From Candidatus Eiseniibacteriota bacterium (GTDB lineage: Bacteria > Eisenbacteria > RBG-16-71-46): a DNA stretch of 34,648 nucleotides. The notes beneath the pieces were generated by a model that did not search any database, was not told where the DNA came from, and saw only the letters and a program-made list of their open reading frames with translations. Where the stretch lies: positions 1 through 34,648 of the forward strand of contig JBGPFC010000037.1 of NCBI GenBank assembly GCA_041483195.1, given 5' to 3'. The position numbers and the translations under genes are program-made. Below, piece after piece: positions 5,733 to 32,382 of this stretch (its first letter is position 1; each line of letters opens with the position of its first letter).

Positions 5733-5739
5733 CGGCGGC

Positions 5740-11090: not shown

Positions 11091-11091
11091 C

Positions 11092-13078: not shown

Positions 13079-13134
13079 CCCGCGATCCGATTCAGCTGGC
13101 CAGCATGCCGCTGTACCCGCGACCGCGGCCCCTG

Positions 13135-13140
13135 TAGAGT
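13135..13140 (+). promoter_or_regulatory. Putative -10 element (TAGAGT) heading the biosynthetic operon
   Basis: TAGAGT-cccgccc-ATG(13148); no SD. Confidence 0.5.
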
Positions 13141-13147
13141 CCCGCCC

Positions 13148-14431
13148 ATGCCGGTCTCAAGGGAGCAGGCCGCCGAGATCGCGCGCCGCCTCGGATGGCA
13201 GGGATCGCCAGACGCGCTTGCGGCGCGGCTTTCCCCTACCACCGAGTCCGCGCGCCCGATCCCGCCCGACATCCCTGCCGTGAAAGACTCGACCGCGGCG
13301 GGTCGCGACCAGCGCCTCGAGTTCCTGCGCTCGCGCGGAATCACCCTCCCGCACCTCGCAGGGAGCGAGCCCCAGGTCGACCCCGAAGAGTTCCGCGGCA
13401 ACATCGAGCAATTCATCGGGATGACCCAGATTCCGACCGGGCTGATCGGTCCGCTGCGCATCAACGGTCTCAACGCCCACGGCGACTTCTACGTGCCGCT
13501 CGCGACCTCCGAGGGGGCGCTGGTCGCGAGCTACTCGCGCGGGGCGCGGCTCATCACGCGCTCGGGAGGCGCGTCGTGTCTCACCACCATCGCTCACGTG
13601 CAGCGCGCTCCGGGCTTCGTCTTCGGCTCGATCGCGGACGCCGGCCGCTTCGCGGCGTGGGCGAGCGGCGAGTTCGAGCGTTTCCGCGAGATGGCGGCGA
13701 CTCGAACCCGGCACGGAAAGCTGATCGACTTTCACATTCACATGGAGACCCGCACCGTCTACCTGCTGTTCTCGTACGACACCGGCGATGCTTCTGGGCA
13801 GAACATGGTGACGCTCTGCACCGACGCGATCTGCCAGGACCTGGTCGCGCGGACTCCGGTCGCTCCGCGCCAGTGGTTCCTCGAGTCCAACCTGTCCGGC
13901 GACAAGAAGGCGACCGCGCTGAACTTCATGCACACCCGCGGCCGCAAGGTGATGGCCGAGGTCACGGTTCCCCGCGAGCTGGTCGAGCGCTACCTCCACA
14001 CCACTCCCGAGCGGATGTGCGACTACTGGCGGATGAGCTTCATCGGCGGCGTGCAGAGCGGCTCGATCGGCGTGACCGGCCACTTCGCCAACGGCATCGC
14101 GGCGATGTACCTCGCGTGCGGCCAGGACGTGGCGTGCGTCAGCGAGGCCGCGGTCGGCACGAACCGGTTCGAGCTCACCGAGACCGGCGATCTCTACTGC
14201 GGCGTGGACCTGCCGAACCTGATCTCCGGCACGGTGGGCGGAGGCACGCGGCTTCCGACCGCCGCCGAGTGCCTGCGGCTCATCGGCTGCGAGGGAACCG
14301 GACACGCCGCGAAGTTCGCCGAGATCTGCGCGGCGGTGGTGCTGGGGGGCGAGCTGTCGATCGCCGGCGCGCTGAGCGCGGGTCATTTCGCGCGCGCCCA
14401 CGAACATCTCGGACGACCGCCCGGCGCCTAG
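13148..14431 (+). CDS. Hydroxymethylglutaryl-CoA reductase family protein (class I-like)
   Basis: NIEQFIG, PLATSEGALVAS (catalytic E), TGDASGQNM, NLSGDKK, GQD, GTVGGGT, GELS, C-terminal catalytic H. Confidence 0.9.
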   Translation: MPVSREQAAEIARRLGWQGSPDALAARLSPTTESARPIPPDIPAVKDSTAAGRDQRLEFLRSRGITLPHLAGSEPQVDPEEFRGNIEQFIGMTQIPTGLIGPLRINGLNAHGDFYVPLATSEGALVASYSRGARLITRSGGASCLTTIAHVQRAPGFVFGSIADAGRFAAWASGEFERFREMAATRTRHGKLIDFHIHMETRTVYLLFSYDTGDASGQNMVTLCTDAICQDLVARTPVAPRQWFLESNLSGDKKATALNFMHTRGRKVMAEVTVPRELVERYLHTTPERMCDYWRMSFIGGVQSGSIGVTGHFANGIAAMYLACGQDVACVSEAAVGTNRFELTETGDLYCGVDLPNLISGTVGGGTRLPTAAECLRLIGCEGTGHAAKFAEICAAVVLGGELSIAGALSAGHFARAHEHLGRPPGA

Positions 14432-14432
14432 C

Positions 14433-15371
14433 ATGTCCAACGGCCGCCGCGCAGGGCTCGCCGCGCGTTTCTGGGCCTACCAGCGCGAGCGGATTCCGTT
14501 CGCGGGGTTCGCGCCGCTGATCGCCGCCTTCACCTTCTCGTCGGCGGCCTATTCGCGCATGGCTCGCGGCGCCGAGGGATTCATTCCATGGACTCGGTTC
14601 GGGGTCGGCGTCTTCACCGCGCTGGTCTTCTTCTTCAGCCTGCGGGTGCTCGACGAGCACAAGGACGAGGACGTCGATCGGCGCTACCGGCCCGAGCTGC
14701 CGGTCCCGCGCGGGCTCATGACGCTGAGGGAATTGCGCGCGATCGGAAGCGTGGCGCTCCTCGCCGCGGTGGCCCTCAACGCCGTCATGTTGCCGGTGAT
14801 GTTGATCCCCATGGCGGTGGTCGCGGTGTGGGCGTCGCTCATGACGCGGGAGTTCTTCGTTCGCGAATGGTTGCGCGCCCACCCGACCGCCTATCTGCTC
14901 ACCCACATGGCGATCATGCCGCTGATCGACACCTATACCACCGGGCTCGACTGGCTGGCCGTCGGCCGTCACCTGCCCACGGGCCTCGTTTACTTCCTCG
15001 CCGTGACCTTCCTGAACGGGATGCTCGTCGAGATCGGGCGCAAGATTCGCTGGCCGGGAGCCGAGCGCGAAGGCGTCGACAGCTACACGCGCGCCTGGGG
15101 CTTGCGCGCGGCGCCCGTGGTGTGGCTGTTGCTGATGGCCGCCGCGGCGACCACCGCGGTGCTCGCGCTCCGGCACGTCGGGAGCGGCCCGCTCGAGATC
15201 ACGATCATCGCTCTCGCGGGCGGGCTGGGCGCCGTCGCGGCGTTCCGCTTCATGCGCCGGCCGGATCTGGCCTCGCAGCTCGCGGTCGAGCGCGTCAGCC
15301 AGTTGTGGATGTTCTCGACCTATCTCGCGATGGGCACGGTTCCGTTCATCGTTCACCGGATCTGGCCGTGA
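14433..15371 (+). CDS. UbiA family prenyltransferase
   Basis: About 8 TMs; LRVLDEHKDEDVDRRYRPELPVPRG first Asp-rich motif. Confidence 0.8.
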   Translation: MSNGRRAGLAARFWAYQRERIPFAGFAPLIAAFTFSSAAYSRMARGAEGFIPWTRFGVGVFTALVFFFSLRVLDEHKDEDVDRRYRPELPVPRGLMTLRELRAIGSVALLAAVALNAVMLPVMLIPMAVVAVWASLMTREFFVREWLRAHPTAYLLTHMAIMPLIDTYTTGLDWLAVGRHLPTGLVYFLAVTFLNGMLVEIGRKIRWPGAEREGVDSYTRAWGLRAAPVVWLLLMAAAATTAVLALRHVGSGPLEITIIALAGGLGAVAAFRFMRRPDLASQLAVERVSQLWMFSTYLAMGTVPFIVHRIWP

Positions 15372-18145: not shown

Positions 18146-18146
18146 G

Positions 18147-19265
18147 ATGCCGGCGCCGGGATCGATCGAAGGGCGGGCGGCGTTCGACTTCATCCGCTAC
18201 GCGAGCGTGTGGGAGGACGCCGACGTGTTGTGCGAGGCGCTGTCCGAGGTGGCGCGCGGCGGGCGGCTGCTCTCGATCGCCTCGGCCGGCGACAACGTCC
18301 TCGCCCTGCTGACGCTCGACCCCGCTCAAGTGGTGGCGGTGGACCTGAGCGCCGCGCAGCTCGCGTGCGTCGCGCTGCGGATCGCGGCGTTCGGCCGGCT
18401 CGATCACCCCGCGCTGCTCGAGTTCCTGGGCGTCCATGGCGAGGACGACGCGAGCGCTCCCGCGCGCCGCATCGAGACCTATCGTCTCCTGCGCGGCGCG
18501 CTTTCCTCCGAGAACATGGAATTCTGGGACGCGCGACCGGAGACGATCGCGAACGGCGTGATCCACGCCGGCAAGTTCGAGAGTTACTTTCACAGCTTCC
18601 GGCGCTGGGTGCTTCCGCTGGTCCACTCGCGCGCGACGGTCGAGGCGCTGCGCACGGCGCGCACCGCGGCCGATCGCGAGCGCTTCTACGAGCGGCGCTG
18701 GAACACGTGGCGCTGGCGCGCGCTGTTCCAGCTGTTCTTCAGCCGCGCGGTGATGGGCCGGCTCGGGCGCGATCCGGAGTTCTTCACCCACGTGGACGGC
18801 CCGGTGGCGACGCGCATCCTCGCGCGCACGCGTTACGCGTTCACGGCGCTGCCGACCGAGAGCAACCCGTATCTCGCCTACACCATGACCGGAAATTTTC
18901 GCGACGGCGCGCTGCCGCGATACCTGAGGCCCGAACACCACGCGGCGATCCGGTCGCGGCTCGGGCGCGTGCGGCTCGAGCGCGGCGGGGTCGAGGCGGC
19001 GCCCGGGCTGTTCGACGGCTTCAACCTGTCGGACGTCTTCGAATACATGAGCCCATCGGAGCACGAGCGCTGCTACGCCGCCCTGCTCGATCACGCCCGT
19101 CCCGGCGCGCGCATCGTGTACTGGAACATGCTCGCCCCGCGGTCGCGCCCGGAGAGCCTGGCCGCGCGCGCGCGGCCGCTCGATGCGCTGGCGGGCGAGC
19201 TGCACGCCCGCGACCGCGCATGGTTCTACCAGCGGCTCCACGTCGACGAGGTGATGCCATCATGA
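18147..19265 (+). CDS. DUF3419 / BtaA-like SAM-dependent (3-amino-3-carboxypropyl) transferase
   Basis: YASVWED, LLSIASAGDNVL, VAVDLSAAQ, GKFE, NPYL, FNLSDVFEYM, DRAWFY. Confidence 0.8.
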   Translation: MPAPGSIEGRAAFDFIRYASVWEDADVLCEALSEVARGGRLLSIASAGDNVLALLTLDPAQVVAVDLSAAQLACVALRIAAFGRLDHPALLEFLGVHGEDDASAPARRIETYRLLRGALSSENMEFWDARPETIANGVIHAGKFESYFHSFRRWVLPLVHSRATVEALRTARTAADRERFYERRWNTWRWRALFQLFFSRAVMGRLGRDPEFFTHVDGPVATRILARTRYAFTALPTESNPYLAYTMTGNFRDGALPRYLRPEHHAAIRSRLGRVRLERGGVEAAPGLFDGFNLSDVFEYMSPSEHERCYAALLDHARPGARIVYWNMLAPRSRPESLAARARPLDALAGELHARDRAWFYQRLHVDEVMPS

Positions 19266-20668
19266 TGGACGCCTCGCGGCTGCTGCCGGCGTGGGGAACT
19301 CCGGCCGGGGAGCTGGCGCGCGCGGCGCTCGTCGCCGCCGGATTTCTCGTGGTGCTCGCGGGGGCCGAGGCGTGGAAGCGCCTCGCGCGGCCCCCGGTCG
19401 AGTGGACGCGCAAGCTCGTCCACGTCTCGGGCGGCGTGGTGAGCGGAACGTTTCCCTGGATGTTCTCCACCCACTGGACGGTGCTGCTGCTCGGCGTCTC
19501 GACCTTCGGAATTCTCGCGCTCGGCAGGCGGCTCGGACTGCTCGGAAGCGTCACCGGGGTCCAGCGCCACTCGGTGGGCGAGCTCCTGTTTCCGGGCAGC
19601 GTCTACGTGCTGTTCCTGGTCGCGCGGCACCAGCCCGTGTTCTACCTGATCGCGCTGTCCGCGCTGGTATTCTCGGACACCGCGGCCGCGCTGCTCGGCA
19701 CCGCCTACGGGCGGCACACCTACACCGTGGATTCCGATCGGAAGAGCCTGGAAGGCTCCGCGGCGTTCTTGCTCGTGACCTTCCTCGGCGTCCACCTGCT
19801 GCTGCTGCTCTGCACCGGGATCGAGCGCACCGCGAGCGTCCTGATCGCGGCTCAGATCGCGCTGCTCGTCACGGCGTTCGAGGCGATCAGCATGAGCGGG
19901 AACGACAACCTGATCGTGCCGCTGATGACCTACTACCTGCTCCTCAAGCTGACGCCCGCGCGCTGGGAGGGGATCGCCTTCCAGCTGATGGTTCAGCTCG
20001 GCCTGCTGCTCGGCATGATCCTGCTCTCGCGCCGCACGGGGTTCTTCACGCTCGCGGGCGCGATCGCGGCCCACCTGACCCTCTACGCAGCATTCAGCCT
20101 GGGCGGGCCGGGATGGACCGTCGCGCCCTTACTCGCGCTCGCGGGGTTCATCGCGTTCCAGAGGGCCTCGCCTCCGAGCGCCGACACCGCGGGTCCGCTC
20201 CACGAAGTGCGCCAGGTGTTCTACGTGAGCATCGTCTCGGTCCTGCTGTTGTTCTTCGACAACAGCTTCGCGACGCTGGTGAAGCCGGGGCACCCGCTCG
20301 GCTCTGGCCATCCGTTCTTCATCCCATTCGTCGCGTCCTTCGCTTCGATGCTCGCGATCGTCGGGTTCCGCGCGCTGCGCCGTCGCCGGGCGCGCGCGGC
20401 GTTCGCCGCGGCGCTCGCCGCGCCGGTCGCGTGGGCCACGGTGGCCCCGATCGCGCTGTGGGCGGGCCCGCCGGGATTCAGGCCGGCCGCGCTGGCGTTC
20501 ACGGCGGCCACCTGCTTCGCGGGCTTCGCGCTCTACCTCGCGGGAAGCCGCCTGCTCCGGCTTCCGCCGGCCGGGGTGTGGGATCTCAGGCTGCAGGCGC
20601 TGTGCGTTGCGGTGGCGGCGGGCCTCGCGCTGCCGTTCACGATCTTCGTCGCGACGAGAATGGACTGA
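19262..20668 (+). CDS. Phytol/dolichol kinase (CTP_transf_1-like) polytopic membrane protein with extra C-terminal TM region
   Basis: TRKLVH, SDTAAALLG..YG, KSLEGSAAF, E.IS..GNDNL.VP; ATGA overlap with upstream gene. Confidence 0.8.
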   Translation: MMDASRLLPAWGTPAGELARAALVAAGFLVVLAGAEAWKRLARPPVEWTRKLVHVSGGVVSGTFPWMFSTHWTVLLLGVSTFGILALGRRLGLLGSVTGVQRHSVGELLFPGSVYVLFLVARHQPVFYLIALSALVFSDTAAALLGTAYGRHTYTVDSDRKSLEGSAAFLLVTFLGVHLLLLLCTGIERTASVLIAAQIALLVTAFEAISMSGNDNLIVPLMTYYLLLKLTPARWEGIAFQLMVQLGLLLGMILLSRRTGFFTLAGAIAAHLTLYAAFSLGGPGWTVAPLLALAGFIAFQRASPPSADTAGPLHEVRQVFYVSIVSVLLLFFDNSFATLVKPGHPLGSGHPFFIPFVASFASMLAIVGFRALRRRRARAAFAAALAAPVAWATVAPIALWAGPPGFRPAALAFTAATCFAGFALYLAGSRLLRLPPAGVWDLRLQALCVAVAAGLALPFTIFVATRMD

Positions 20669-20675
20669 GGCGCAC

Positions 20676-21677
20676 ATGGAGATCGAGCGGTTCGTCTCGG
20701 AGGGCGCGACGCCGCCGGCGTTCGAGGCCGTGCGCGGGATCCCGGCGCTTCCGGTCGAGCCGCTGCCGCGAGGCGTGACGTGTCTCGTCGCCCGCGAAGG
20801 CGGTCGGCCGGTGGCGCGCCTGAGCCTTCATCTTCGCGAGAACCTGAACGGCGCCCCGGGACGATCGGGGCTGATCGGGCACTACGAGGCGTTCAATCGC
20901 GACGTTGGCGCCGCGTTGCTGGAGGAGGCGCGCCGGCAGCTCGCGGACCAGGGCGTGGCGCGCGTGATCGGTCCGATGAACGGCAGCACCTGGGCACGCT
21001 ATCGGCTGGCGCTCCCCTCCGCGCCGGCCGATCCCGCCGGCGAGCCGCCGTTCTTCACGGCCGAGCCCAGCAACCCGTTCGACTATCCCGGGCACTTCGA
21101 GGCCGCCGGGTTCCGAATCGCGGCCCGCTACGAGAGCCGGATCGACGACCTCGCGGCGGACGCTCCCGATGCCGGCGAGGTGAGCGCGCGCGTGGCGGCG
21201 GGCGGCTTCTCGTTGCGGCCGCTCGACGTCGATCGCTTCGACGCAGAGCTCGCGACGCTCTTCGCGTTGAGCATCGAGTCGTTCTCCGAGAACCTCTACT
21301 ACTCGCCGATCGACGAGGCCGCGTTCCGGGCCATGTATCAGCCCCTGCGCTCGCGCATGGATCCCGAGTTCGTGCTGATCGCGCTCGACGGCGCGGCGCG
21401 GCCGTGCGGCTACCTGTTCGCCTTCGCCGACCCGCTCGGCGTGCGCGATGGCCGTCCGGTGCGCCTGATCGCCAAGACCGTCGCGGTCTCGCCCCGGGCG
21501 CGCGGCCACGGCGTGGCGAACCACATGCACGACCGCATGCGCAGCGCCGCGCGCGACCGTGGGTGCCGCGATGTGATCCACGCGCTCATGCACGTCTCGA
21601 ACGTCTCGACGATCATGTCGGCCCGCTACGACAGCCGGGTGTATCGTCGTTACGCGCTCTGGGAGTGGACGCCGTGA
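20676..21677 (+). CDS. Tandem-GNAT N-acyltransferase-like protein
   Basis: GHYEA, GPMNGSTW.RYR, EP.NP..YP; second GNAT KTVAVSPRARGHGVA; GAGG RBS. Confidence 0.75.
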   Translation: MEIERFVSEGATPPAFEAVRGIPALPVEPLPRGVTCLVAREGGRPVARLSLHLRENLNGAPGRSGLIGHYEAFNRDVGAALLEEARRQLADQGVARVIGPMNGSTWARYRLALPSAPADPAGEPPFFTAEPSNPFDYPGHFEAAGFRIAARYESRIDDLAADAPDAGEVSARVAAGGFSLRPLDVDRFDAELATLFALSIESFSENLYYSPIDEAAFRAMYQPLRSRMDPEFVLIALDGAARPCGYLFAFADPLGVRDGRPVRLIAKTVAVSPRARGHGVANHMHDRMRSAARDRGCRDVIHALMHVSNVSTIMSARYDSRVYRRYALWEWTP

Positions 21678-23296
21678 CTCAAGTCGAGGCTTCGAGCCGG
21701 GCCGACGCCGTCATCAATCCCAACCTCGCCGCCCGCATGATCGCGCGCGCCGCACGGTATCCCGAGCGCGCCGCGATCGTCGAATATCGTTCCGGCCGCG
21801 TGCGGCGGCTGACGTTCGGCGCGCTGGCTCGCGACGTGGCCGCGGTGGCCGCCGGGCTCGAGGCCCGCGGTATCTCTCCAGGCGACGACGTGTTGCTCTT
21901 CGTTCCCATGTCGATCGAGCTCTACGTGGTGCTGCTCGCACTCTACCATCTCGGAGCATGCGCGGTGTTCGTGGATGCCTGGGCCGGCCGCACGCGGCTC
22001 GATCAAGCCGTTCGTGCCGCGCGCCCGCGCGCCTTCATCGGCTCTCCGCGCGCCCACCTGCTCCGGCTCGCGAGCCCCGCGATGCGGGCGATCCCGCGCG
22101 CGATCGTGGTCGGCGGCGCCTGGCCGCTCGCGCGGCTCGCACGAGGGGACCCCGCGAGGGCGGCCGCCCCGGTCTCTGTGGAATCGCCGGCGCTCGTCAC
22201 GTTCACGACCGGCAGCACCGGGGCACCCAAGGCCGCGGTGCGAAGCCATGGCTTCCTGTGGGCCCAGCATCTGGCGCTTCAGGATCATCTGCGGCTCCGG
22301 GAGGATGACGTGGACCTTCCGACGCTTCCGGTGTTCGTGCTCAACAATCTCGCGGTCGGGTGCACGACGGTCATACCCGATTTCGATCCCCGTCACCCCG
22401 CGGACATCCGGCCCGCGGCGATCCATCGCCAGATGACCGCCGAGCGCGTGACCACGACCGGTGGCTCGCCGGCTTTCTACGAGAAGCTCGCGACGTGGTG
22501 CCGCGAGCGGCACCAGCGTCTCGAGGTTCGCGCGCTGTTCACCGGCGGTGCCCCGGTGCTGCCCCCGCTCGCGCGTCTGCTGACCGAGACCGTGACCGGC
22601 GAGGTGAACGTGGTGTACGGCAGCACCGAGGCGGAACCGATCTCCGGGATCGATGCGCGCGCGATGCTGGCCGGCATGGAACGAGGCGGCGATGGCTTGT
22701 GCGTGGGGTCGCCGGTCGATCGCATCCGCGTGCGCCTGATCCGCCCCTTCGACGCCCCGATCGCGCTCGGTCCCGAGGGATGGCGCGAGTGGGACGTGGC
22801 CGCCGGCGAGGTCGGGGAAATCGCGGTGAGCGGGGATCACGTGCTGAAGGGATATCTCGGCGACCCGGAGGCTGAGCGCGCGAACAAGATCCGCGACGGC
22901 GCGTGCGTGTGGCACCGCACCGGCGACGCCGGGCGGCTCGATGCCGAGGGGCGGCTGTGGCTCATGGGCCGCGTGAGCCGAAGGGTGCTGCGCGATGGCG
23001 CGACGTGGTGGGGGATCCCCGCCGAGATGCGCGCGCTCGGCGTCGAAGGCGTGCGACACGCGGCCTACCTCGGGCGCCCCGACGCGAAGCTCGGCCAGCG
23101 CGCGACGCTGTGCGTCGAGACCGGAGGCGATCGCATCGACCTCGCGCTGCGCGAGCGGCTGATCGCGGCGGTGGCGCCGCACCCGGTCGACGAGCTGCAT
23201 GCCTTCGCCCATCTCCCCCGCGACCCGCGGCATCAGTCGAAGACCGATGCCGGCGCGCTGATTCACGCGCTCGAGCGAAGAGAGGGAAGCGATTGA
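21674..23296 (+). CDS. AMP-binding adenylate-forming enzyme (OleC-like)
   Basis: TFTTGSTGAPK, YGSTEAEP, GEI.V.G.HV...Y, WHRTGDAG, LW.MGR, PRDPRHQSK; GTGA overlap. Confidence 0.85.
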   Translation: MTQVEASSRADAVINPNLAARMIARAARYPERAAIVEYRSGRVRRLTFGALARDVAAVAAGLEARGISPGDDVLLFVPMSIELYVVLLALYHLGACAVFVDAWAGRTRLDQAVRAARPRAFIGSPRAHLLRLASPAMRAIPRAIVVGGAWPLARLARGDPARAAAPVSVESPALVTFTTGSTGAPKAAVRSHGFLWAQHLALQDHLRLREDDVDLPTLPVFVLNNLAVGCTTVIPDFDPRHPADIRPAAIHRQMTAERVTTTGGSPAFYEKLATWCRERHQRLEVRALFTGGAPVLPPLARLLTETVTGEVNVVYGSTEAEPISGIDARAMLAGMERGGDGLCVGSPVDRIRVRLIRPFDAPIALGPEGWREWDVAAGEVGEIAVSGDHVLKGYLGDPEAERANKIRDGACVWHRTGDAGRLDAEGRLWLMGRVSRRVLRDGATWWGIPAEMRALGVEGVRHAAYLGRPDAKLGQRATLCVETGGDRIDLALRERLIAAVAPHPVDELHAFAHLPRDPRHQSKTDAGALIHALERREGSD

Positions 23297-24282
23297 GCAC
23301 GAATCGGTGGAGCTTCGGCGTCGCGGCGCTCACCGCGACCATCACGCTCGTCGGCTGCGCGCGATCCTCGGGTCACTCGTCGTCCGGCGGCTCGGCGACC
23401 AGCGGCCCCGCGCTCCTCGCGCGAGGAAGCGCCGCCGACGCGTTCGCGCCAGATGACACCGTCCGGCGCGGGCCCTACCGCGGAAGTCGATTCGATACCA
23501 GGGAGCAGCGCAGCGTGCGCCTCCTCACACGCGAGGAGGTCGTCGCGCAGGGGCTCGCTCCGGCTCCTGGACGCATCGTGGTCGCCAACGTCCGCCATGC
23601 CGAACGCTACTGGATCGCCGAGATCGCGCCGGAGTCGGTCAGCGACGTGATCGTCCAGCTCGAGAACTTCCCCGCCGTGGTGCCGGCGGCACACTGCGAG
23701 CTTCGCTTCCGCTTCGCCCCCGGTGCGATGCCGCTCCTCACGAACCAGGCGCCCGCGGCGGGACGCGACAGCCTGCACCTCTCCGATCTCGTCTATTCGG
23801 TCGAGGCGGTGCCGGTCGTGGGGGGTGACTCATACGACCTGTGGCGTGGTCTGTGGGATCACTACGGCAATGCCTACCGCCTGTGCTCGCTCGACGACCG
23901 CTACGAGCGAATGGTGGTGCGCTCGGGGCATCACGTCGAGCAGCTCCGGCTCGAGCTCTCGGCGGATCAGCGGCGGCGAGTGCTCGAGGCGGCGCTCCGG
24001 CGCGGCGATCACGCCCAGATGCAGCTGATGTACAACACGCTCACGCGGAACTGCTCGACCGAGGCCTATCGCGCACTGGATGACGCCGTGCACTACGATG
24101 TGGGTCATTCGTTCCTCAAGTTCGTCGCGTCGCCGCTCGAGGCCCTTCCGACCCAGGCGAAGACCGTGCTCGGCGCCCGTGGCCTGCTCGGCGCCGGGAG
24201 CGAGCTTCCCGAACTCGCTCGCGAGCGCGGCGCGGCAGCGGGCGGGCGAACCGACACGTCCGGGGCCGCGCGCCCGCGGTGA
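23293..24282 (+). CDS. Lipoprotein with DUF4105/Lnb-like permuted papain-type His...Cys motifs
   Basis: TTG start overlapping upstream stop (TTGA) with purine-rich RBS; lipobox LVG-C; AAHCELRFRF, YSVEA, YNTLTRNCST. Confidence 0.6.
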   Translation: MSTNRWSFGVAALTATITLVGCARSSGHSSSGGSATSGPALLARGSAADAFAPDDTVRRGPYRGSRFDTREQRSVRLLTREEVVAQGLAPAPGRIVVANVRHAERYWIAEIAPESVSDVIVQLENFPAVVPAAHCELRFRFAPGAMPLLTNQAPAAGRDSLHLSDLVYSVEAVPVVGGDSYDLWRGLWDHYGNAYRLCSLDDRYERMVVRSGHHVEQLRLELSADQRRRVLEAALRRGDHAQMQLMYNTLTRNCSTEAYRALDDAVHYDVGHSFLKFVASPLEALPTQAKTVLGARGLLGAGSELPELARERGAAAGGRTDTSGAARPR

Positions 24283-24305
24283 GATCCGACCTTCACGAGG
24301 CCCCG

Positions 24306-27300
24306 ATGCCGCGCCGGCCCTACCCGATCCTGGTGACGATCCTCGCGCTGACCGCGCTCTCCCTCGCGCCGGCAGGCGTCACGGCCGCCGCCGCGCCGGA
24401 CACGCTGCTTGCCGGTCTGCTCGCGCGGGCCGGCGACCTCCAGTCCGCCCGCGGGTGGGCCGCCTCCGACAGCGTCGCCGCCCTCGCGTTCGATCGCGCG
24501 GAACAGCGCCATCCGCCGGATTCGACGGCGATGGCGCTCGCGCTCTTCTACCGCGGCAACTCGCGGTACTGGCGCGCCCTGTTCAGCGACACGGTGGGTA
24601 CGACCTATCTCGCGCGCAGCATTCGCATTCAGCGGCGCCTCGCGCACCCGGACACCGGCCGCTGGGTCGCGACCGTGGATCTGTTCGGGCGCCTGCTCAC
24701 CGACGGCGACCACCCGGACTCCGCGCTCGTCGTGCTCGCCACCGGGCGGGCGCTGTGCCGCCCGCCGGGCGCGGGCGCTGACTCGATGCTCGCCGCGCTC
24801 TGGATCACCACGGGGCGCGCCTATCGCCGCGCGGATCGCTACGACGAGGCGATCGCGGCGTACGACTCGGCGCGCATGCTGCGGGAGCGGCGCTTCGGAC
24901 CCGAGCACGCTTCGGTGGCGGAAGCGCTGGCGGAGATCGGGGCGATCTACGGCCGCTCGAATCGGCTCGAAGCGGCGAGCGTCGCCCTCGAACGTGCGCT
25001 GGCGATCCTCGAGCGCACGCTGGGACCCGAGAGCGCCTCCCTCGCCGCCCCGCTCGCCGAGCTCGCCAACGTCCAGAATCATGCTGGCGAGATCGCGCGG
25101 TCGATCGAGACGCTGGAACGTGACATCGCGATCCTCTCCAAGGCGAACGGGCCGAATTCGCCGCGGATGATCCCGCCGCTCTACAACATCGGGCTCCGCC
25201 TGTTCGACTTCGGCGACTTCCCGGGGGCCTATGCGGCGTTCGCGCCGCTGGTGGCGCGCGCCGAGGCCAGCTTCGGCGCCGGCAATGGCCGCACCGAGAA
25301 CATCCGATTCATGGCCGGGGCCAGCGCGATGATGATGGGCGACACGACCGCCGCCGCCCCGCACCTGACCCGCGCGCGGGCGGAGCTGGCGGGAAAGCCG
25401 CTCGACACGAACCACATCGCGAACCAGATCGAGCGCTTCTACTCCATGCTGCTCGAGCGTCGCGGCGATCTCGCCGGAGCGAGACGCGTGCTGGACGAGG
25501 GCCTGGCTCGCGAGCGTGCCACGGGTCAGCCGATCGAGGATGTTCTGATCCAGCTCCTCGACAGTCAGGCCTCGGTCGAGATGGCGAGCTTCGACACGCT
25601 CGGCCTCGATCGCACGCTGCAGGAAATGGAGACGCGCTTCGGGGACCCGTCGAAGGCGGAGGGAGTGTTCTACGCGGAGTATCTGCAGTCGCGGGCGCGG
25701 GCGGAGTGCTGGCGCGGGCGGGCCGAGCTCGCCTCGGTGGACGCGCTGCTCGGCGAGGAGATCGATCGCGAGCGGCTGCTGCGCAACGTGCGAGCGCTCC
25801 CCGACCAGCGAGCCCTTCAGCTCGCGAGTGAGCTGGGCGGTCCACTCGACCTGGTGCTATCGCTCTCGGGAGGCGGGGGCGAGCCGGCGATCGCCGCGGC
25901 GTGGGATCGCCTGGTGCGCTGGCGCGGCCTGGTGACTGCGGAGCTGGCGCGGCGCCGCGCGCCCCACGAGGCGAGCGCTGACACGGCGCTCGCTGGCGCG
26001 CATGCCCGCTGGGTGCGGATGGCTCGCCGCGCCGCACAGCTCGAGGTCGCGGAATCGGGCGGAGACCCGGGGTCGGCGCTCGCGCTCAGCCGCGCCGAGG
26101 CCGAAGCGGCGGAACGCCGCTACGCCGCGCTGGCCGCCGCGCGTGGCATCGCGCGCGACACGACGCCGGTGGATCTCCCGCGAATTCGCGCGGCACTCTC
26201 GCCCGATCAAGCGCTGGTCTCGTTGGTCACGGTCGCCGCGCGCACCGACACCGCCCGCTTCATCGGCTTCGTGACCCGCGGGCCGGGCGGAGCCCTGCAT
26301 CGAGTCGATCTCGGTCCCGCACGCGAGCTGCTCGCACACCTCGCGGCCTGGCGCGCGGCACTCGAGGTTCCGCCCGCACGCGGGCACGAGCGCAAGGCGG
26401 AGCGCGACTGCCGGAGACTGGGCGCCGACGTGCGCGCGCGCACCTGGGACCGTCTCGCCCCGCTCACCGCCGGCGCGCGCGGCGTCGTGCTGGTCGCCGA
26501 CGGCGCGCTGGCCGACCTGCCGTGGCAGGCGTTGCCGATCGGAGCGAATCGATACCTGGTGGAGGAGGGTCCCGAGCTCGAGAACCCGGGGGCCGAGCGC
26601 GAGCTGCTCGCGCAGCGCGCTCGCGCGGGTCGCGGCCTGCTCGCGATCGGCGATCCGGAGTTCGGCCGCGCGGAGGCGAGCACCGACACGGCGCGCTCGT
26701 TCGCGGCCGGCGACTGTCGCGGGGCGCCGGCGATCGCGCTCGCGCAACTGCCGGGAGCCCGCGCCGAAGTGGACGAGATCGCGCGCGAGTGGAACGCGGA
26801 CCACCCGGGCGCCCCCGCCACGCTGCTCGTCGGCGCCGCGGGATCGGAGCGCGCGTTCAAGGCGGATGCGCCGGGACGCGAGGTGCTGCACATCGCGACC
26901 CATGGAATCCTGTGGGGCGATCGCTGCGCGCCGGTTTACGCGGGGCTGCGAGGCGTGGGCGGCATGGTTCCGCTCAAGCCCGCGACAAAGTCGAAGCGAC
27001 CCGCATCGTCGCGACCGCCCCCCGCGAGCGCCGCGGCGCCATCGCCCGCCGCGCCTCCCGCCTCGCCGTGGAGCGGCCGGCGCGTGTGGCTGGCGCTGGC
27101 CGGCGCGAACCGCGCGCGTGCCGGCGCCGCCGATGAGAACGAGGGCCTGCTCACCGCCGACGAAGTGGTGACGCTCGACCTGTCGGACGTGGACTGGGTC
27201 GTGCTCTCGGCATGTCAATCGGGCGTCGGGCAACAGTGGCCGCTCGAGGGCTCGATCGGCATGCGACGCGCGTTCCAGCTGGCGGGGGCGCGCGCGGTGA

Positions 27301-27497
27301 TCGCCAGCCAGTGGTCGATCGCGGACGAGGCGACGCGCGAGTGGATGCGCGCGCTCTACATGGCCCGGGCCGGCAGCGCCACCTCCGCTTCCGCCGCGAT
27401 GCGCGAGGCCAGCCGCAGCGTGCTCGAGTCCCGCCGCCGCGATGGCCGCGATACCCACCCGTTCTACTGGGCCGCCTTCACCGCCACCGGGCGGTGA
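24306..27497 (+). CDS. Secreted TPR-CHAT domain caspase-like protease
   Basis: Signal peptide; kinesin-light-chain-type TPRs (RERRFGPEH); CHAT motifs ADGALADLPW, LPGARAE, LHIATHG, VVLSACQSG, AGA..VIASQWSI.D, HPFYWAAF. Alternative GTG start at 24279. Confidence 0.9.
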   Translation: MPRRPYPILVTILALTALSLAPAGVTAAAAPDTLLAGLLARAGDLQSARGWAASDSVAALAFDRAEQRHPPDSTAMALALFYRGNSRYWRALFSDTVGTTYLARSIRIQRRLAHPDTGRWVATVDLFGRLLTDGDHPDSALVVLATGRALCRPPGAGADSMLAALWITTGRAYRRADRYDEAIAAYDSARMLRERRFGPEHASVAEALAEIGAIYGRSNRLEAASVALERALAILERTLGPESASLAAPLAELANVQNHAGEIARSIETLERDIAILSKANGPNSPRMIPPLYNIGLRLFDFGDFPGAYAAFAPLVARAEASFGAGNGRTENIRFMAGASAMMMGDTTAAAPHLTRARAELAGKPLDTNHIANQIERFYSMLLERRGDLAGARRVLDEGLARERATGQPIEDVLIQLLDSQASVEMASFDTLGLDRTLQEMETRFGDPSKAEGVFYAEYLQSRARAECWRGRAELASVDALLGEEIDRERLLRNVRALPDQRALQLASELGGPLDLVLSLSGGGGEPAIAAAWDRLVRWRGLVTAELARRRAPHEASADTALAGAHARWVRMARRAAQLEVAESGGDPGSALALSRAEAEAAERRYAALAAARGIARDTTPVDLPRIRAALSPDQALVSLVTVAARTDTARFIGFVTRGPGGALHRVDLGPARELLAHLAAWRAALEVPPARGHERKAERDCRRLGADVRARTWDRLAPLTAGARGVVLVADGALADLPWQALPIGANRYLVEEGPELENPGAERELLAQRARAGRGLLAIGDPEFGRAEASTDTARSFAAGDCRGAPAIALAQLPGARAEVDEIAREWNADHPGAPATLLVGAAGSERAFKADAPGREVLHIATHGILWGDRCAPVYAGLRGVGGMVPLKPATKSKRPASSRPPPASAAAPSPAAPPASPWSGRRVWLALAGANRARAGAADENEGLLTADEVVTLDLSDVDWVVLSACQSGVGQQWPLEGSIGMRRAFQLAGARAVIASQWSIADEATREWMRALYMARAGSATSASAAMREASRSVLESRRRDGRDTHPFYWAAFTATGR

Positions 27498-27511
27498 GCC
27501 GCGCCAGCGGT

Positions 27512-27517
27512 TATTCT
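27512..27517 (+). promoter_or_regulatory. Putative -10 element (TATTCT), leaderless-type start of sigma gene
   Basis: TAnnnT 7 nt before ATG 27525. Confidence 0.45.
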
Positions 27518-27524
27518 GGGCCGC

Positions 27525-28136
27525 ATGACCGAACCGCCCCGCGACCCCGCTCCCGCGAACGAGCCCGGCGCCGTCCCGCTGCTCGCGACGGTCGAGCTGC
27601 TGCGCCTCGCCAGGGCCGGCGATGATCGCGCGCGCGACCAGTTGCTCGCGCGCTACGCGCCGCGACTTCGCCGCTGGGCGAGTGGCCGGCTTCCCATGTA
27701 CGCGCGCTCGCTGTTCGACACCGCCGACGTGGTGCAGGAAACGCTGCTGCGGGTGCTCCAGGGGTTCGACCGCATCGAGGTGCGGGGACCGGACGGCTTC
27801 CAGTTCTATGTGCGCCAGGCGGTGCTCAATCGTATTCGGGATGAGGTGCGCTGGGCGCGGAGGCGGCCGGGGCCTGGCGAGGTGCCGGAGTCGCTGCCCG
27901 ACCCGGCTCCCTCGCCGATGGAACAGGCGATCGGCGCCGACGTCCTGGATCGATACGAGCGGGCGCTGGCCACGCTCGATGAGCAGGATCGTCAGTTGCT
28001 GCACCTTCGCATCGAACTGGACTTCGACTATCAGGAGATCGCGACCATGACCGGGCGGCCGAGCCGCGGGGCGGTGCGGATGGCGATTCAGCGGGCGCTG
28101 GGGCGGCTCGCGAGCGCGATGGGCCATGAGCGCTGA
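27525..28136 (+). CDS. ECF-type RNA polymerase sigma-70 factor
   Basis: Region 2 (GD..A..QL..RY..RL, D.VQE) and region 4 (AL..L...DRQLL.LR...Y.EIA...G....AV.M...RAL..L). Confidence 0.9.
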   Translation: MTEPPRDPAPANEPGAVPLLATVELLRLARAGDDRARDQLLARYAPRLRRWASGRLPMYARSLFDTADVVQETLLRVLQGFDRIEVRGPDGFQFYVRQAVLNRIRDEVRWARRRPGPGEVPESLPDPAPSPMEQAIGADVLDRYERALATLDEQDRQLLHLRIELDFDYQEIATMTGRPSRGAVRMAIQRALGRLASAMGHER

Positions 28137-29826
28137 GCGCGACGCGGTGGATGCGCTGCTGGCCTCCATCTCGGATGGATCGCCCGTCGACTGGGAGGCC
28201 GCGAGGAAGGGCGCGACCCCGGCGGAGCGCGAACGGCTCGCGGCCATGCGCGAGATGGCGAACATCGCCGAGTTCAATCGCGGCCTGCAGCGCGGGGCGC
28301 ACCCGCAGGAGGCGGGTCCAGCCGCATCCGCGCCCGAACGCTGGGGCGAGTTGCTGCTCCTCGAGCGCATCGGCTCCGGCGCTCGCGCCGATGTCTACCG
28401 CGCGTGGGATCCGGCACTGCGACGCGAGGTGGCGCTCAAGCTGATGCGCCCCGGAACCGACGACGCAGCCTTGCTCGATGAGGGCCGGGCCGCGGCCCGC
28501 GTGCGCCACCCGCACGTGGTCACGGTGCACGGCATCGACGAACACGACGGACGGGTGGGGCTGTGGATGGAACTCGTGCGCGGCGCCACCCTCGACCACG
28601 AGGTGCGCACCCGCGGGGCCTCGAGCGTCGCCGATGTGTCGCGCCTCGCGGCCGAGATCGGCGGGGCGCTGGCCGCGGTGCACGAGGCGGGACTGATTCA
28701 TCGCGACGTGACCCCCGCCAACATCGTGCGCGATCGCGAGGGACGCTTCGTGCTCGCGGACTTCGGGCTCGGGCTGCGCGGCGACGATGCGGCGAAGCAG
28801 TTGCCGGGACTCTCGGGCACCCCGATGTACATGGCGCCGGAGCTGCTCGCGGGCGGCACCGCCAGCGAGCGCTCGGACCAGTACGCGCTCGGCATGGTGC
28901 TGTGGTTCGCGATCGCCGGGCGACATCCGTTCGAGGAGAAGTCGCTCGAGGCGCTGACCGAGGCCGTGAGGCGCGGTCCCACGCCGTCGGTGCGAACGAT
29001 CCGCGCCGAGCTTCCGCCCGCGCTGGCGGCGGCGGTGGAGCGAGCGATCGCGCCCGCCCCCGAGGCGCGATACGCGAACGTGCGGTCGCTGGTCGCGGCG
29101 TTGGAGACCGCGCTTCGCGCCCGTCACGGGCGAACGGCGCTGATCGCCGGCGCGTTCGTCGGCGTGATGCTGGTCGCGGCGCTGCTTCGCCGGCCGGGGC
29201 ACGCACCCGAGCGCGAGTCGGTTCCACCCCCGGCCCCCGCGACCGCGCAGGCCGGCACTTACTCCGTGGTCGCCACCATGCTTCGACAGGGAACCTCGGG
29301 GGCCTCGCCCATCTCGACCGGCGACCGCGTGAAACCCGGCGATCGTCTGTCGCTCGAGGTACGAGCGAGCTTGCCGGCGTGGGTGTACGTCCTGAACGAG
29401 GACGAACGCGGCGAGCGCTACCTGCTCTTCCCACAACCGCGTCTCGACGTTTCGAACCCGCTTCCCGCGGATTCGGCGCTCACCCTCCCCGGCCCGATCG
29501 GCGGCGTCGAGAACGCATGGTCCGTGACCAGCGCCGGCGGCCGAGAGCACTTCCTGCTGGTGGTGAGCCCGGAGCCGGTCGCCGAGATCGAAGCCGACCT
29601 CGCGCGGATTCCCGCGGCACGACCCGGGCGGCCGATCGTCTACGCGCCGATCGGCGAGGCGGCGATCGATCGCCTGCGCGGGGTCGGCGGCATGGTGCCG
29701 ATGCCGAAACGGGCCCCGGCCGCACGAGCGAACGGGTTCGATTCCTTCCGCGCCCTGGCCGGCCGCGAGAGCGGCGTGCGCGGAATCTGGGTGCGCCAGA
29801 TCGTGCTCGAGAACCCGGCGCGCTAG
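28126..29826 (+). CDS. Membrane Hanks-type Ser/Thr kinase with C-terminal DUF4384-like extracytoplasmic domain
   Basis: IGSGA..VY, VALK, HRDVTPAN, DFG, GTPMYMAPE, SDQYALG; TM ALIAGAFVGVMLVAALL; GDRL.L.V...VYVLN.D..G....LFP...N.L. Confidence 0.9.
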   Translation: MSAERDAVDALLASISDGSPVDWEAARKGATPAERERLAAMREMANIAEFNRGLQRGAHPQEAGPAASAPERWGELLLLERIGSGARADVYRAWDPALRREVALKLMRPGTDDAALLDEGRAAARVRHPHVVTVHGIDEHDGRVGLWMELVRGATLDHEVRTRGASSVADVSRLAAEIGGALAAVHEAGLIHRDVTPANIVRDREGRFVLADFGLGLRGDDAAKQLPGLSGTPMYMAPELLAGGTASERSDQYALGMVLWFAIAGRHPFEEKSLEALTEAVRRGPTPSVRTIRAELPPALAAAVERAIAPAPEARYANVRSLVAALETALRARHGRTALIAGAFVGVMLVAALLRRPGHAPERESVPPPAPATAQAGTYSVVATMLRQGTSGASPISTGDRVKPGDRLSLEVRASLPAWVYVLNEDERGERYLLFPQPRLDVSNPLPADSALTLPGPIGGVENAWSVTSAGGREHFLLVVSPEPVAEIEADLARIPAARPGRPIVYAPIGEAAIDRLRGVGGMVPMPKRAPAARANGFDSFRALAGRESGVRGIWVRQIVLENPAR

Positions 29827-29979
29827 AGCCGGGGAACGAGCAGCTCTCCCCCACTCGACCCACCAGTCCACTGCCGTGCACTCGGGCCTCATGGGACGTA
29901 TTGGAAAAGTGGGTGGGCAGGCAGGCGTCTCTCGCGACGCCTCCCGCCCGATGCCCACCGATCCGTTCCGGAGGCCGTC

Positions 29980-32382
29980 ATGTCTCGTGTCTTCGCATCT
30001 TCATCGTCGCGGCGCGCGTGGCCGCTCGCCGTCCTGCTGCTGACTCTGTCTCTTCGGGCCGATTCGGCCCACGCCACCAGCAGCTACTGGCGTTCCGCGG
30101 TCAGCGGTTCAGCGAGCGTGGCCGGCAATTGGAATCCGGCGGTGATTCCCGGCGCGGCCGACCTCGCCGGCTTCACGCTCACCGGTCTTTACACCGCGAG
30201 CTGGGCCTCTCCCCAGGACACGCTTGGAACGCTGGACGTGAATACCGGTACGCCCGCGCTCAGCATCGCCGGCAATCTGGGGGTCCGGAACGCCGCGATC
30301 GTCGAGGATGGCGGCTTCCTGACGATTTCCTCGGGCCGCGTGCGCGCGAACCAGTGGCTCGTCGGTCACCTGGGATCAGGGCGCTTGATCGTCACCGGGG
30401 CCGGCTCGCAGGCCGTCTCGGTATCGTCCAACGCTCCCACCATGTTTGCCGAGACCACCTCCACCTCCGCGTCTGTCGCGATTGTGGGCGAGGGTCAGTT
30501 CATCTCGAACAGCTGGTATGAGCTGGGGCATCACGTTTTCAGCACCACCTGCAGCCTCCTGGTCGCGGGCGGCAACGTCATCACCCGGATCGGTTCCCGG
30601 CTCTCGACCCTGAGCAGCGCCGGCGGCGGCGACCGCGGCGGGCTGATCGTCGGTGTCAATGGCCCCGCGTACGTCGACATCTACAACGGCGGATTCGTGG
30701 ATCTCAAGGGTCCGCTCGTCGTGGGCCGACGCGGAAACGCGACCATGCGCCTGTACAAGACGGGCGGCATTCTGGTCCCCGGCATGAACGTCGGGGGGAA
30801 CACCTACATCGGATACGAGCCGAGCACGTTGCTCGCGCACCCCGGACTTCTCTCGCTGGAGGCCGGCCTCGTCCGGCTCGGCGGCGGAGTGCTGATCGGC
30901 GACCCCGATCACACGAGCGGCAACGCCGACCAGGGCACGCTACGTGTGCAGGGCAGCAGCGTGATCGTGGGCGGACCGATCCAGATGCCGCCCTCGCTCG
31001 CCGGAACCCTCGAGCTGCGAAGCGGCACGCTGCAGATGCTGAGCGGCCTCTCGGCGATCCAGCAATCGGTCCCGTTCGCGGTGTCGAGCAGCGTGGGCTC
31101 GCCGACGATGTGGCTCGAGCCCGGCGCGTTCGCGCTCGTCAAGCCCGCGAGCGGATCGACCATCGCGCTCGGCGTCGGCCGCGGCGGCGCGGGCCGCGTG
31201 CGGATCGCGGGCACCAACGCGCGGATGGACGCCGCCGGCGAAATCGCGATCGCTGATTCCGCCGGCGGAACCGGGATCGTCGAGGTGGACTCCTCCGGCG
31301 TGCTGAACGCGAGTTCCGGCCTCATCGAGGGAACCGGGGGATCGATCAGCATTCGGGGTGGCGGGCAGTTGAACGTGCCGACGACGTTGCTCGCCATGGG
31401 CACGATCCAGATGCACGACGGAATCTTCGACTGCCCGTGGGGCGTCCTCGGGCAGCCCGCGACGCTGACCGGCAGCGGCACGCTCGTCGGCAGGTGGGAC
31501 AACCTGGGCAGCGTCGTGATCCCAGCTTCCGAGATCCTGTCCGTCTCGGGGACTTTCAATTCCGTGGTGGGAACGGTCTCGGGCGGAGGAACGCTCGAGA
31601 TGACCCCGGGCAGCGTCCTGCAGGCCATCGGGACCAAGGAGGGGAGCATCGTGATGATGTCGAGCGAGCTCCGGCCCTATACAATTACGGACGCACCGCA
31701 GGCCGGCGCGCATCGCGCGCGGCCCAGCGCGAACGCGATCGAGGGAGTGCCGATCGCGCCGCCGGGACGCCTGCACGTGATCGACGACCTGAACATGATC
31801 GACGCGTGCATCACGACGGTGCGCATCGACTCGCAGGCTTCGGGACTGCGCGACACCCTCGAGGTCGGCGGCGAGGCGGCATTGTCGGGTGTGCTCAACC
31901 TGCTCACGATCTCGGGCTCGGAGCCGGTCGCGGGCGACACCATCACGATCATCGAGGCGGCCAGCGTCACCGGGGAGTTCTCGGGCGGGATCCGGCTCGA
32001 CGGAGTCGATCCGGCCGGCGCCGTCACGCTCGAGTACACGCCGACCCGCGTGAGGGTGATCTTCTTGGGATCGGCGCTCGGCGTCGGTGACGACCCCCGG
32101 CTCCGGGAGACCGCGATGGCCCTCCGGCTCTGGGCGGTGCGCACCCCCGGCACCGCGGCGTTCACGCTGGAGCTGCCCGAGCGCGCGCGCGTCCTGCTCA
32201 CGGTGTTCGACGTGAGCGGGCGCGAAGTCTCACGGCTCGCCGACGACGTGCTCGAATCCGGCCGTCATCGGTTTACGCTCCGGCCCGGACGACTCGCGAG
32301 CGGCGTGTATTTCGCGAGAGCGCAGATCGAGGCGCCGGGCGGCACGATCGTGAAGCGCACGCGCGTGGCGGTGCTGAGATAG
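29980..32382 (+). CDS. Large secreted Gly-rich beta-helix (autotransporter-passenger-like) protein with C-terminal FlgD-Ig/T9SS-type domain
   Basis: GGAGG RBS; signal peptide (AHA); W...SG.....NW.P..P start; VG..G.G.L.V repeats; C-terminus LTVFDVSGREV..L....GRH...LASGVYFAR...VLR*. Confidence 0.8.
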   Translation: MSRVFASSSSRRAWPLAVLLLTLSLRADSAHATSSYWRSAVSGSASVAGNWNPAVIPGAADLAGFTLTGLYTASWASPQDTLGTLDVNTGTPALSIAGNLGVRNAAIVEDGGFLTISSGRVRANQWLVGHLGSGRLIVTGAGSQAVSVSSNAPTMFAETTSTSASVAIVGEGQFISNSWYELGHHVFSTTCSLLVAGGNVITRIGSRLSTLSSAGGGDRGGLIVGVNGPAYVDIYNGGFVDLKGPLVVGRRGNATMRLYKTGGILVPGMNVGGNTYIGYEPSTLLAHPGLLSLEAGLVRLGGGVLIGDPDHTSGNADQGTLRVQGSSVIVGGPIQMPPSLAGTLELRSGTLQMLSGLSAIQQSVPFAVSSSVGSPTMWLEPGAFALVKPASGSTIALGVGRGGAGRVRIAGTNARMDAAGEIAIADSAGGTGIVEVDSSGVLNASSGLIEGTGGSISIRGGGQLNVPTTLLAMGTIQMHDGIFDCPWGVLGQPATLTGSGTLVGRWDNLGSVVIPASEILSVSGTFNSVVGTVSGGGTLEMTPGSVLQAIGTKEGSIVMMSSELRPYTITDAPQAGAHRARPSANAIEGVPIAPPGRLHVIDDLNMIDACITTVRIDSQASGLRDTLEVGGEAALSGVLNLLTISGSEPVAGDTITIIEAASVTGEFSGGIRLDGVDPAGAVTLEYTPTRVRVIFLGSALGVGDDPRLRETAMALRLWAVRTPGTAAFTLELPERARVLLTVFDVSGREVSRLADDVLESGRHRFTLRPGRLASGVYFARAQIEAPGGTIVKRTRVAVLR

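Follow-up and report, generated by a model that had tools for sequence, protein, structure and literature searches.

In the Craspase set of proteins (Csx29, Csx30 and RpoE), a TPR-CHAT protease cuts its substrate once, in a flexible linker near the C-terminal domain, and the output is an ECF-type (extracytoplasmic function) sigma factor; according to passages of the preprint on this system, Csx30 is the substrate of Csx29 and binds RpoE, and some Csx30 orthologues end in DUF4384 (10.1101/2022.08.17.504292). A periplasmic TPR-CHAT protease tied to an ECF sigma factor is also known from Myxococcus xanthus (DdvA-DdvS), whose authors put forward, as a proposal only, that the pathway begins when a signal induces CHAT to cut a flexible linker (passages of PMC11506125). 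ECF genes are coupled to transmembrane Hanks kinases with a periplasmic sensor in ECF43 and related groups and in EcfK-PknS of Xanthomonas citri; kinase-associated ECF groups are listed in sections of PMC7826278, from whose main text the words 'CHAT' and 'caspase' are absent. In the 34,648-nucleotide stretch of Candidatus Eiseniibacteriota DNA described here (contig JBGPFC010000037.1; 'the window' denotes its whole length), genes for a TPR-CHAT protease, an ECF-type sigma factor and a membrane Ser/Thr kinase with a DUF4384 domain lie side by side, and protease and kinase contain the same nine-residue peptide, LRGVGGMVP. Its core is conserved in both families and its variable positions co-vary between cognate partners. 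The features of the module are:

24279 to 27497, plus strand: TPR-CHAT protease, 1072 residues (Pfam), with a GTG start overlapping the upstream stop and an alternative ATG at 24306
24306 to 24398, plus strand: putative N-terminal export signal, residues 10 to 40 (basic start, hydrophobic core, Ala-rich end), read from the translation
26889 to 26906, plus strand: catalytic His motif HIATHG; its His875 occurs in 61 of 61 paired CHATs and is invariant in the CHAT alignment
26907 to 27080, plus strand: insert between His and Cys, with conserved Cys883, the shared peptide and then a Pro/Ala/Ser-rich linker (translation, alignment)
26946 to 26972, plus strand: first copy of LRGVGGMVP, residues 890 to 898 of the protease (in-frame translation)
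27204 to 27224, plus strand: catalytic Cys motif LSACQSG; its Cys979 occurs in 61 of 61 paired CHATs
27525 to 28136, plus strand: ECF-type sigma factor, 203 residues (Pfam Sigma70_r2, Sigma70_r4_2, Sigma70_ECF), its stop overlapping the kinase start by 11 nucleotides
28126 to 29826, plus strand: membrane Ser/Thr kinase, 566 residues (Pfam), comprising a conserved N-terminal extension, Hanks domain, one membrane helix, DUF4384 and a tail
29329 to 29577, plus strand: DUF4384 β-sandwich of the ectodomain, residues 402 to 484 (Pfam PF14326, AlphaFold2)
29674 to 29700, plus strand: second copy of LRGVGGMVP, residues 517 to 525 of the kinase (in-frame translation)
29785 to 29808, plus strand: C-terminal strand IWVRQIVL (family-wide consensus G-[VI]-W-V-R-x-h-x-L-E-N-P; alignment, AlphaFold2)

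The protease matches the Pfam CHAT profile (PF12770) at 166.2 bits, against a cut-off of 24, over residues 730 to 1071, and TPR_12 at residues 172 to 245. Its His-Cys dyad is in the expected order, its model has a caspase-type fold, and the protein is predicted to be a peptidase. The AlphaFold2 model of the CHAT domain (pLDDT, the predicted local distance difference test, 83; pTM, the predicted template modelling score, 0.83) retrieved 28 PDB chains at E ≤ 0.001 with Foldseek, the top matches being the TPR-CHAT protease Csx29, DdvA and separase. These matches include 7y8t_B (Csx29, E = 5.7e-8), 8rw5 and 8rot (DdvA), 5fby_A (separase) and the gingipain R (RgpB) structures 1cvr and 4ief_D. A profile search of PDB sequences with the protease profile gave no match. 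In the kinase, Pfam places the Pkinase domain at residues 79 to 279 and DUF4384 scores 41.8 bits against a cut-off of 27 (46.3 bits in the genome search). The sigma factor, with regions 2 and 4 only, adjoins this Hanks kinase; in NCBIfam it matches only the superfamily model TIGR02937.

Csx29 chains rank first among the structural matches to the window CHAT model. The locus departs from Craspase in several respects. The window protease is predicted to be exported, not cytoplasmic on Cas7-11; its DUF4384 neighbour is a Hanks kinase and not a sigma-binding Csx30, only the DUF4384 domain type being common; and a copy of the substrate site within Csx29 is not described in the preprint passages. 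No CRISPR-like array was found in the window and no Cas family among the 22 window open reading frames (ORFs) scanned against Pfam; there is no association with Cas7-11 or a type III-E array in the window, and no Csx30 N-terminal sigma-binding domain. DdvA is a protease fused through a membrane helix to a cytoplasmic zinc-binding anti-sigma domain in one chain and would cut itself in trans, whereas the window protease is a separate protein (a putative export signal followed directly by TPRs at its N-terminus, with no anti-sigma domain), its membrane partner is a kinase and a co-evolving peptide is common to both. PknS differs in having periplasmic TPRs and no protease partner. Clan CD proteases offer a further parallel, since in separase-securin and the gingipain RgpB prodomain a substrate-like segment fills the active site until it is released; in contrast, the putative mimic of the window protease would lie inside the catalytic domain, in the stretch from His to Cys, and its co-evolution would be with a single dedicated substrate. 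Securin is named as a separase-bound inhibitor in passages of PMC11506125. Full-text literature searches turned up no description of a CHAT-kinase-sigma module or of the motif; supplements may list such neighbourhoods. A preprint atlas of bacterial kinases names DUF4384 a single time, among the domains associated with kinases, and its main text contains neither 'CHAT' nor 'sigma'.

The identity of the two copies is real and far beyond chance. As the initial annotation had stated, both 27-nucleotide stretches translate to LRGVGGMVP. Both are in frame, the first between HIATHG (residues 871 to 876) and LSACQSG (976 to 982) of the 1072-residue protease ORF, the second C-terminal to both the sole hydrophobic helix (337 to 354) and DUF4384 (402 to 484) of the 566-residue kinase. 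Inspection of the DNA verified four differences between the copies, all synonymous and all in the third position of a codon (cga/cgc, ggc/ggg, gtg/gtc, gtt/gtg), and showed that their flanks are unrelated in sequence. From the compositions of both proteins the expected number of identical 9-mers is 1.8e-4; the longest common string in 100 shuffles was ≤ 7 residues (7 in 2 of 100) against 9 observed; and in the six-frame translation of the whole 4.17-Mb, 70% G+C genome LRGVGGMVP occurs only at these two sites. A chance match was ruled out by these three results.

The core of the peptide is widespread. The kinase ectodomain was searched in 201 genomes of the class (a phylum-level search covered the same genomes and added nothing) and was present in 81. 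From these, 60 kinase-anchored loci were taken, leaving out genome G050, and 79 more loci came from species-representative genomes scanned with the CHAT alignment, with record labels of Eisenbacteria, Acidobacteriota (Vicinamibacterales), Krumholzibacteriota, Gemmatimonadota and Planctomycetia. Labels of Saccharimonadaceae, Bifidobacteriaceae and Fibrobacteraceae on modules that resemble those of Eisenbacteria or Acidobacteria (L097, L137 and L117) are probably binning or labelling errors. The unpublished genome G050/G209 enters the tallies over 201 genomes, the result for stand-alone CHATs given below and, as loci L102 and L114, the breadth and linkage counts; it is not among the pairs used for co-variation.

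Copies were scored against R-[GAS]-[VILMF]-G-[GAS]-[VILMF] (maximum 14, threshold 12). Of 105 distinct CHAT loops, 96 have the core R-[GAS]-[VILM]-G-G-[LVMI] at a score ≥ 12, as do 90 of the 96 distinct tails of the kinase. Among the nine loops below the threshold, the motif is absent from seven (L139, L151, L163, L164, L166, L168 and L068) and two carry variants (L076 and L160); five of the six tails below it are apparently out of frame, as judged from a six-frame read, and the sixth is the L160 variant. In alignments made regardless of the motif, all 32 CHAT domains have its Arg, and in the 48 ectodomains no more than 10 columns are invariant, that of the Arg among them. A second, paralogous module in the same genome (contig C31, positions 18000 to 32000) has ARGLGGIAS in the protease (4389 to 7670, plus strand) and LRGIGGVSE in the kinase (7730 to 9457, minus strand); its sigma gene lies at about 9462 to 10010 (minus strand), the CHAT gene is convergent with the sigma-kinase operon, and its domains are about 53 to 70% identical to those of the window module. 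Since these peptides share the core, the core is not unique to the window locus even in its own genome. The private code of the initial annotation is not supported in the form proposed: R-[GAS]-x-G-G-hydrophobic is family-wide in both proteins, and pair-specificity is limited to the variable positions +2 and +5 to +8 (counted from the Arg).

A metagenome scan found mostly distant CHATs at 25 to 30% identity, for most of which the His/Cys pattern yielded no loop; the loops that were extracted (L248, L258, L259 and L261) are short and lack the motif-bearing insert. It also gave two further clean pairs (L185 and L186), with GGVEP and RGIGGVA common to the partners. A search for shorter proteins of DUF4384 plus tail returned 60 matches, nearly all on contigs of a few kb and looking like cut kinases, with no evidence among them for another architecture. 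The genome encodes a third DUF4384 protein (contig C22, 22512 to 24185, plus strand), with a signal peptide, an N-terminal DUF4384 and, following that, a region rich in Trp, Tyr and Pro; the RGxGG motif is absent from it, and none of the neighbouring genes examined encodes a protease.

The variable positions were compared in 61 distinct neighbouring CHAT-kinase pairs, after the exclusion of six loci (L068, because its CHAT is motif-less, and five in which the kinase tail is broken). Over a window from -3 to +10 around the Arg, itself unscored, cognate partners agree on average at 5.70 of the 13 positions and non-cognate ones at 4.27, and none of 20,000 shuffles attained the observed identity sum of 348 (shuffle mean 262.0, standard deviation 8.3). 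The signal persists when relatedness is taken into account. Swapping partners between nearest relatives (30 disjoint swaps) lowers the identities from 344 to 299, the cognate arrangement winning 19 times, tying 6 and losing 5 (sign test P = 0.0033, Wilcoxon P = 0.00025), and the comparison with the CHATs of the five nearest relatives gives 5.70 against 5.05 (P = 0.0025). In a smaller, earlier set of 30 pairs, neighbour swaps gave 7 wins, 6 ties and 2 losses (P = 0.09), and the effect became clear only with 61 pairs. Genomes with two modules allow a comparison that controls for genome composition, since it is made within one genome: cognate exceeds swapped in 7 of 7 (78 against 54 identities). 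The co-variation that the initial annotation had named as a check on its proposal is thus present.

The excess is confined to the motif and the residues that follow it. It is largest at +2 (identity 0.82 in cognate, 0.45 in shuffled and 0.68 in swapped pairs), followed by +5 (0.67, 0.35 and 0.58) and then +6 to +8; positions -3 to -1 show no excess, and an upstream control window shows no signal (10 wins, 11 ties, 9 losses; sum -1). Rare variants illustrate the same pattern. Both partners of L160 (SXIK01000125.1, labelled Planctomycetia; CHAT 4623 to 7433, kinase 2162 to 3709) have RGITRLK, with Thr-Arg in place of Gly-Gly on both sides. LRGAG-x-IA in L076, RGIGLL in L088, R-S in L133 and L144, R-A in L134 and Phe at +5 in L148 are likewise confined to cognates.

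Gene conversion was considered as the origin of the identity. At residues alike in both copies, 163 of 405 codons are identical against 161.0 expected from the codon usage of each gene pair, and non-cognates give 0.409. Gene conversion is ruled out by codon identity at expectation, which indicates that the likeness is held at the protein level and not copied as DNA; constraint on the protein rather than duplication of DNA, argued in the initial annotation from the window copies, is thereby borne out across the family.

Protease, kinase and sigma factor genes also travel together. The sigma gene lies beside the kinase in 53 of the 60 kinase-anchored loci (tblastn), and a CHAT gene is within about 9 kb in 30 of the 60, many other contigs ending nearby. 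Gene order is variable among the 61 pairs (kinase then CHAT in 31, divergent in 18, CHAT then sigma-kinase in 10, convergent in 2). Kinase and CHAT occur together in 73 of the 201 genomes and are both missing from 88, while 8 have a kinase without a CHAT and 32 a CHAT without a kinase, an odds ratio of 25 among relatives that are not independent. In CHAT-anchored loci with ≥ 3 kb of flank on both sides, the kinase is in the locus for 42 of the 54 CHATs that bear the motif and for 0 of the 6 that lack it; with all flanks admitted, the figures are 49 of 78 and 0 of 14. For five motif-less CHATs, a kinase was found in 1 of 5 genomes; for five stand-alone motif-bearing CHATs, it was found elsewhere in the genome in 5 of 5. 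No further conserved neighbour was found among the window genes checked over 140 module loci.

Both copies of the motif probably lie in flexible segments. In the CHAT model, the residues that carry it (188 to 207) have pLDDT < 50. The ectodomain model has a confident β-sandwich at residues 21 to 121 (block pLDDT 82 to 93), and a short helix that ends at the Leu of the motif; confidence is low from the Gly after the Arg (159 to 175 and 180 to 186), with pLDDT < 50 from residue 159 on. Beyond this disordered linker, residues 195 to 202 (IWVRQIVL) form a confident β-strand (block pLDDT about 80) that may pack onto the DUF4384 sandwich. Since both copies fall in low-confidence segments, they appear to be exposed linear motifs and not parts of a buried core; burial would have counted against the initial annotation. 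The ectodomain fold had no structural match in the PDB at E ≤ 0.001. Predictions of a complex between the CHAT domain and the kinase ectodomain scored 0.27 and 0.21 against a mark of 0.32, which speaks neither for nor against binding.

Two unrelated flexible peptides that are alike, change together and differ between paralogues are best explained by a single reading site on a module-specific partner. As protease and kinase are the only conserved exported partners and the dyad is kept, the substrate cleft of the protease is favoured as the reader. The chances are about even that one protease site, probably this cleft, reads both peptides, the kinase tail as substrate and the protease loop as pseudosubstrate or as a site of self-cleavage, in a pathway that leads to an ECF sigma factor under the control of the kinase. 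The three genes would then form one envelope-signalling module, made up of an exported TPR-CHAT protease of the separase/Craspase type, a membrane kinase with a periplasmic DUF4384 domain, and an ECF sigma factor that the kinase presumably controls. The motif would be a short linear one, R-[GAS]-[VI]-G-G-[LVMI] plus a few pair-specific residues, read at one place on the cognate protease. The substrate site would be the copy carried by the kinase tail, in the flexible linker between the DUF4384 sandwich and the C-terminal strand, and a cut there may untether the strand from the sandwich, alter the sensor and so affect kinase output and, through it, the sigma factor. The copy in the protease, about 15 residues past the catalytic His, would mimic the substrate as an autoinhibitory pseudosubstrate in cis or as a self-processing site. 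As both peptides must fit the same site, they would drift together, and paralogous modules in one cell would stay distinguishable. There are precedents for individual steps: sigma-factor phosphorylation by the kinase is direct in PknS-EcfK (passages of PMC13147305), and periplasmic proteolysis of a sensor kinase is reported for VgrS (PMC6237974).

There are two candidate scissile sites. The R↓G bond, proposed in the initial annotation, would suit separase-like and gingipain-like enzymes; the other candidate is a cut after position +5 (GGM↓V here), which would make the most co-varying positions, +2 and +5, P4 and P1. P4 and P1 are the usual specificity positions of caspase-type enzymes. The second site is suggested by analogy with Craspases, the structurally nearest characterised CHAT proteases, which cut after Met (VGM↓KK) or Leu (passages of PMC11506125).

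A more elaborate and more tentative version, possible but somewhat improbable as a whole, is that of a protease-activated receptor kinase with an address code. The protease would be kept shut by the copy, in its own domain, of its sole substrate's site until a signal arrives; the cut would free the last DUF4384 strand and turn on sigma phosphorylation, and co-evolution would insulate paralogues from each other. The Craspase set Csx29-Csx30-RpoE might then be a CRISPR-recruited, cytoplasmic offshoot of an older envelope module.

Several points weigh against the substrate-cleft reading. Only the Arg and the residues after it are shared, so the two copies are not equivalent sites: the residue before the Arg is Leu in nearly all kinases (entropy 0.45 bits) and variable in proteases (2.88 bits), with an identity in cognates of 0.18 against 0.15 in shuffled pairs. 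The Leu match in the window, part of the peptide as initially annotated, is therefore an exception and not a common feature. If the protease were cut in its His-Cys loop, the catalytic domain would be split in two, an unusual event for clan CD. Swaps between very close relatives give ties or small losses, so that the co-variation signal comes from pairs below about 60% identity. A downstream control window shows a weak excess (14 wins, 8 ties, 8 losses; sum +14 against +45 in the motif window), which may reflect shared composition. The pairs were retained only if both sides scored ≥ 11 for the motif, the score was devised once the motif was known, so that the counts of its occurrence describe and do not test, and the ORFs are stop-to-stop frames from metagenome-assembled genomes, not curated genes. 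Finally, the kinase of L068 has the tail LRGIGGIEP (frame 3049 to 4911), whereas the adjoining CHAT (4686 to 7946), the sole one found in that genome, is motif-less.

The same observations might be explained by docking without cleavage, the motif being the ligand of a non-catalytic site in the protease TPR array or the kinase DUF4384, with the copy on the receptor's own chain bound at rest and the partner's on signalling, as a competitive switch of partners, and the protease cutting something else or nothing. Co-variation, flexibility and linkage would suit any single shared receptor site equally, and TPR arrays commonly bind short peptides. On the other hand, retention of the His-Cys dyad in 61 of 61 paired CHATs shows that selection acts on proteolysis; an invariant Arg with a small residue after it, set in a disordered linker, resembles the cleavage site of Arg-specific clan CD enzymes; and AlphaFold2 places neither copy confidently against its own domain. 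Docking of this kind is rather unlikely, though the likeliest of the alternatives.

Direct pairing of the two Gly-rich peptides as a short β-zipper, joining protease and kinase in a miniature of the amyloid motifs of NLR-effector pairs, is very improbable. It would predict what is seen in that both sides change to the same residue and not to complementary ones, and amyloid signalling pairs were themselves discovered through motifs common to adjacent genes. But amyloid motifs have about 20 or more residues and stand at the NLR N-terminus and the effector C-terminus, whereas the part shared here has 6 to 9, is internal in the protease and is accompanied by no NLR domain among the Pfam matches and no NLR-type protein at the locus; moreover, an invariant Arg and Gly-Gly are atypical of zipper cores and no repeat of the motif was seen. 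A general periplasmic protease, chaperone or modifying enzyme that reads the motif in each protein independently would account for conservation of the core across phyla, as expected for the site of a housekeeping factor. One shared factor does not explain why paralogous modules hold different cognate variants in 7 of 7 genomes, no gene beyond the three is conserved at the module, and CHATs that lack the loop motif have no kinase in the locus (0 of 6 and 0 of 14); such a third factor is highly improbable.

Some features of protease and kinase stand apart from the shared peptide. Cys883 (26925 to 26927), about seven residues past the catalytic His-Gly, is kept in nearly all loops, even in motif-less CHATs; the protein being probably exported, a disulfide at Cys883 may position the loop. 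In the kinase, the catalytic loop HRDVTPAN (28699 to 28722) has Thr in place of the Lys usual for Hanks kinases; Lys is also usual among its relatives, Thr occurring in a minority (the window kinase and an HGDVTT-type group), and VALK, DFG and the catalytic Asp and Asn are all intact. Ahead of the kinase domain, some 70 residues (28126 to 28335) are conserved among relatives (SISDG-x-x-[VI]-DW, IAEF-x-R) with no Pfam match, and may serve to dock or hold the sigma factor.

The other genes of the window appear unrelated to the module. An exported protein of 800 residues (29980 to 32382, plus strand) directly follows the kinase; it has no Pfam match and is Gly/Ser/Val-rich and repeat-like. Relatives of it occur in only 4 of the 140 loci (L044, L113, L136 and L140), so it is probably a bystander; the AMP-binding enzyme, an Lnb_N protein and a 611-residue protein recur in none. 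The genes upstream (4119 to 23296) look metabolic or biosynthetic according to Pfam, and include:

4119 to 5807, minus strand: amine oxidase
5921 to 6718: GAF-HTH_8 regulator
13148 to 14431: HMG-CoA reductase
14588 to 18145: PPDK_N/PEP-utilizer protein, 1185 residues
20780 to 23296: AMP-binding enzyme

The module appears to be a variant of protease-gated sigma-factor signalling undescribed in the literature searched. The natural substrates of bacterial CHAT or caspase-like proteases are almost unknown outside the CRISPR Craspase, as are the signals that activate sigma-linked Ser/Thr kinases. The module offers a candidate substrate with a site of 6 to 9 residues, two bonds at which it may be cut, and natural variants in specificity, among them a pair of distinguishable modules within one genome; taken together, these allow a direct test at the bench. 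The DUF4384 link to Csx30 would connect Craspase accessory genes with a widespread envelope pathway outside CRISPR. Should the loop prove to be a mimic of the substrate, built into the protease and co-evolving with its target, it would illustrate in compact form private protease-substrate specificity among paralogues.

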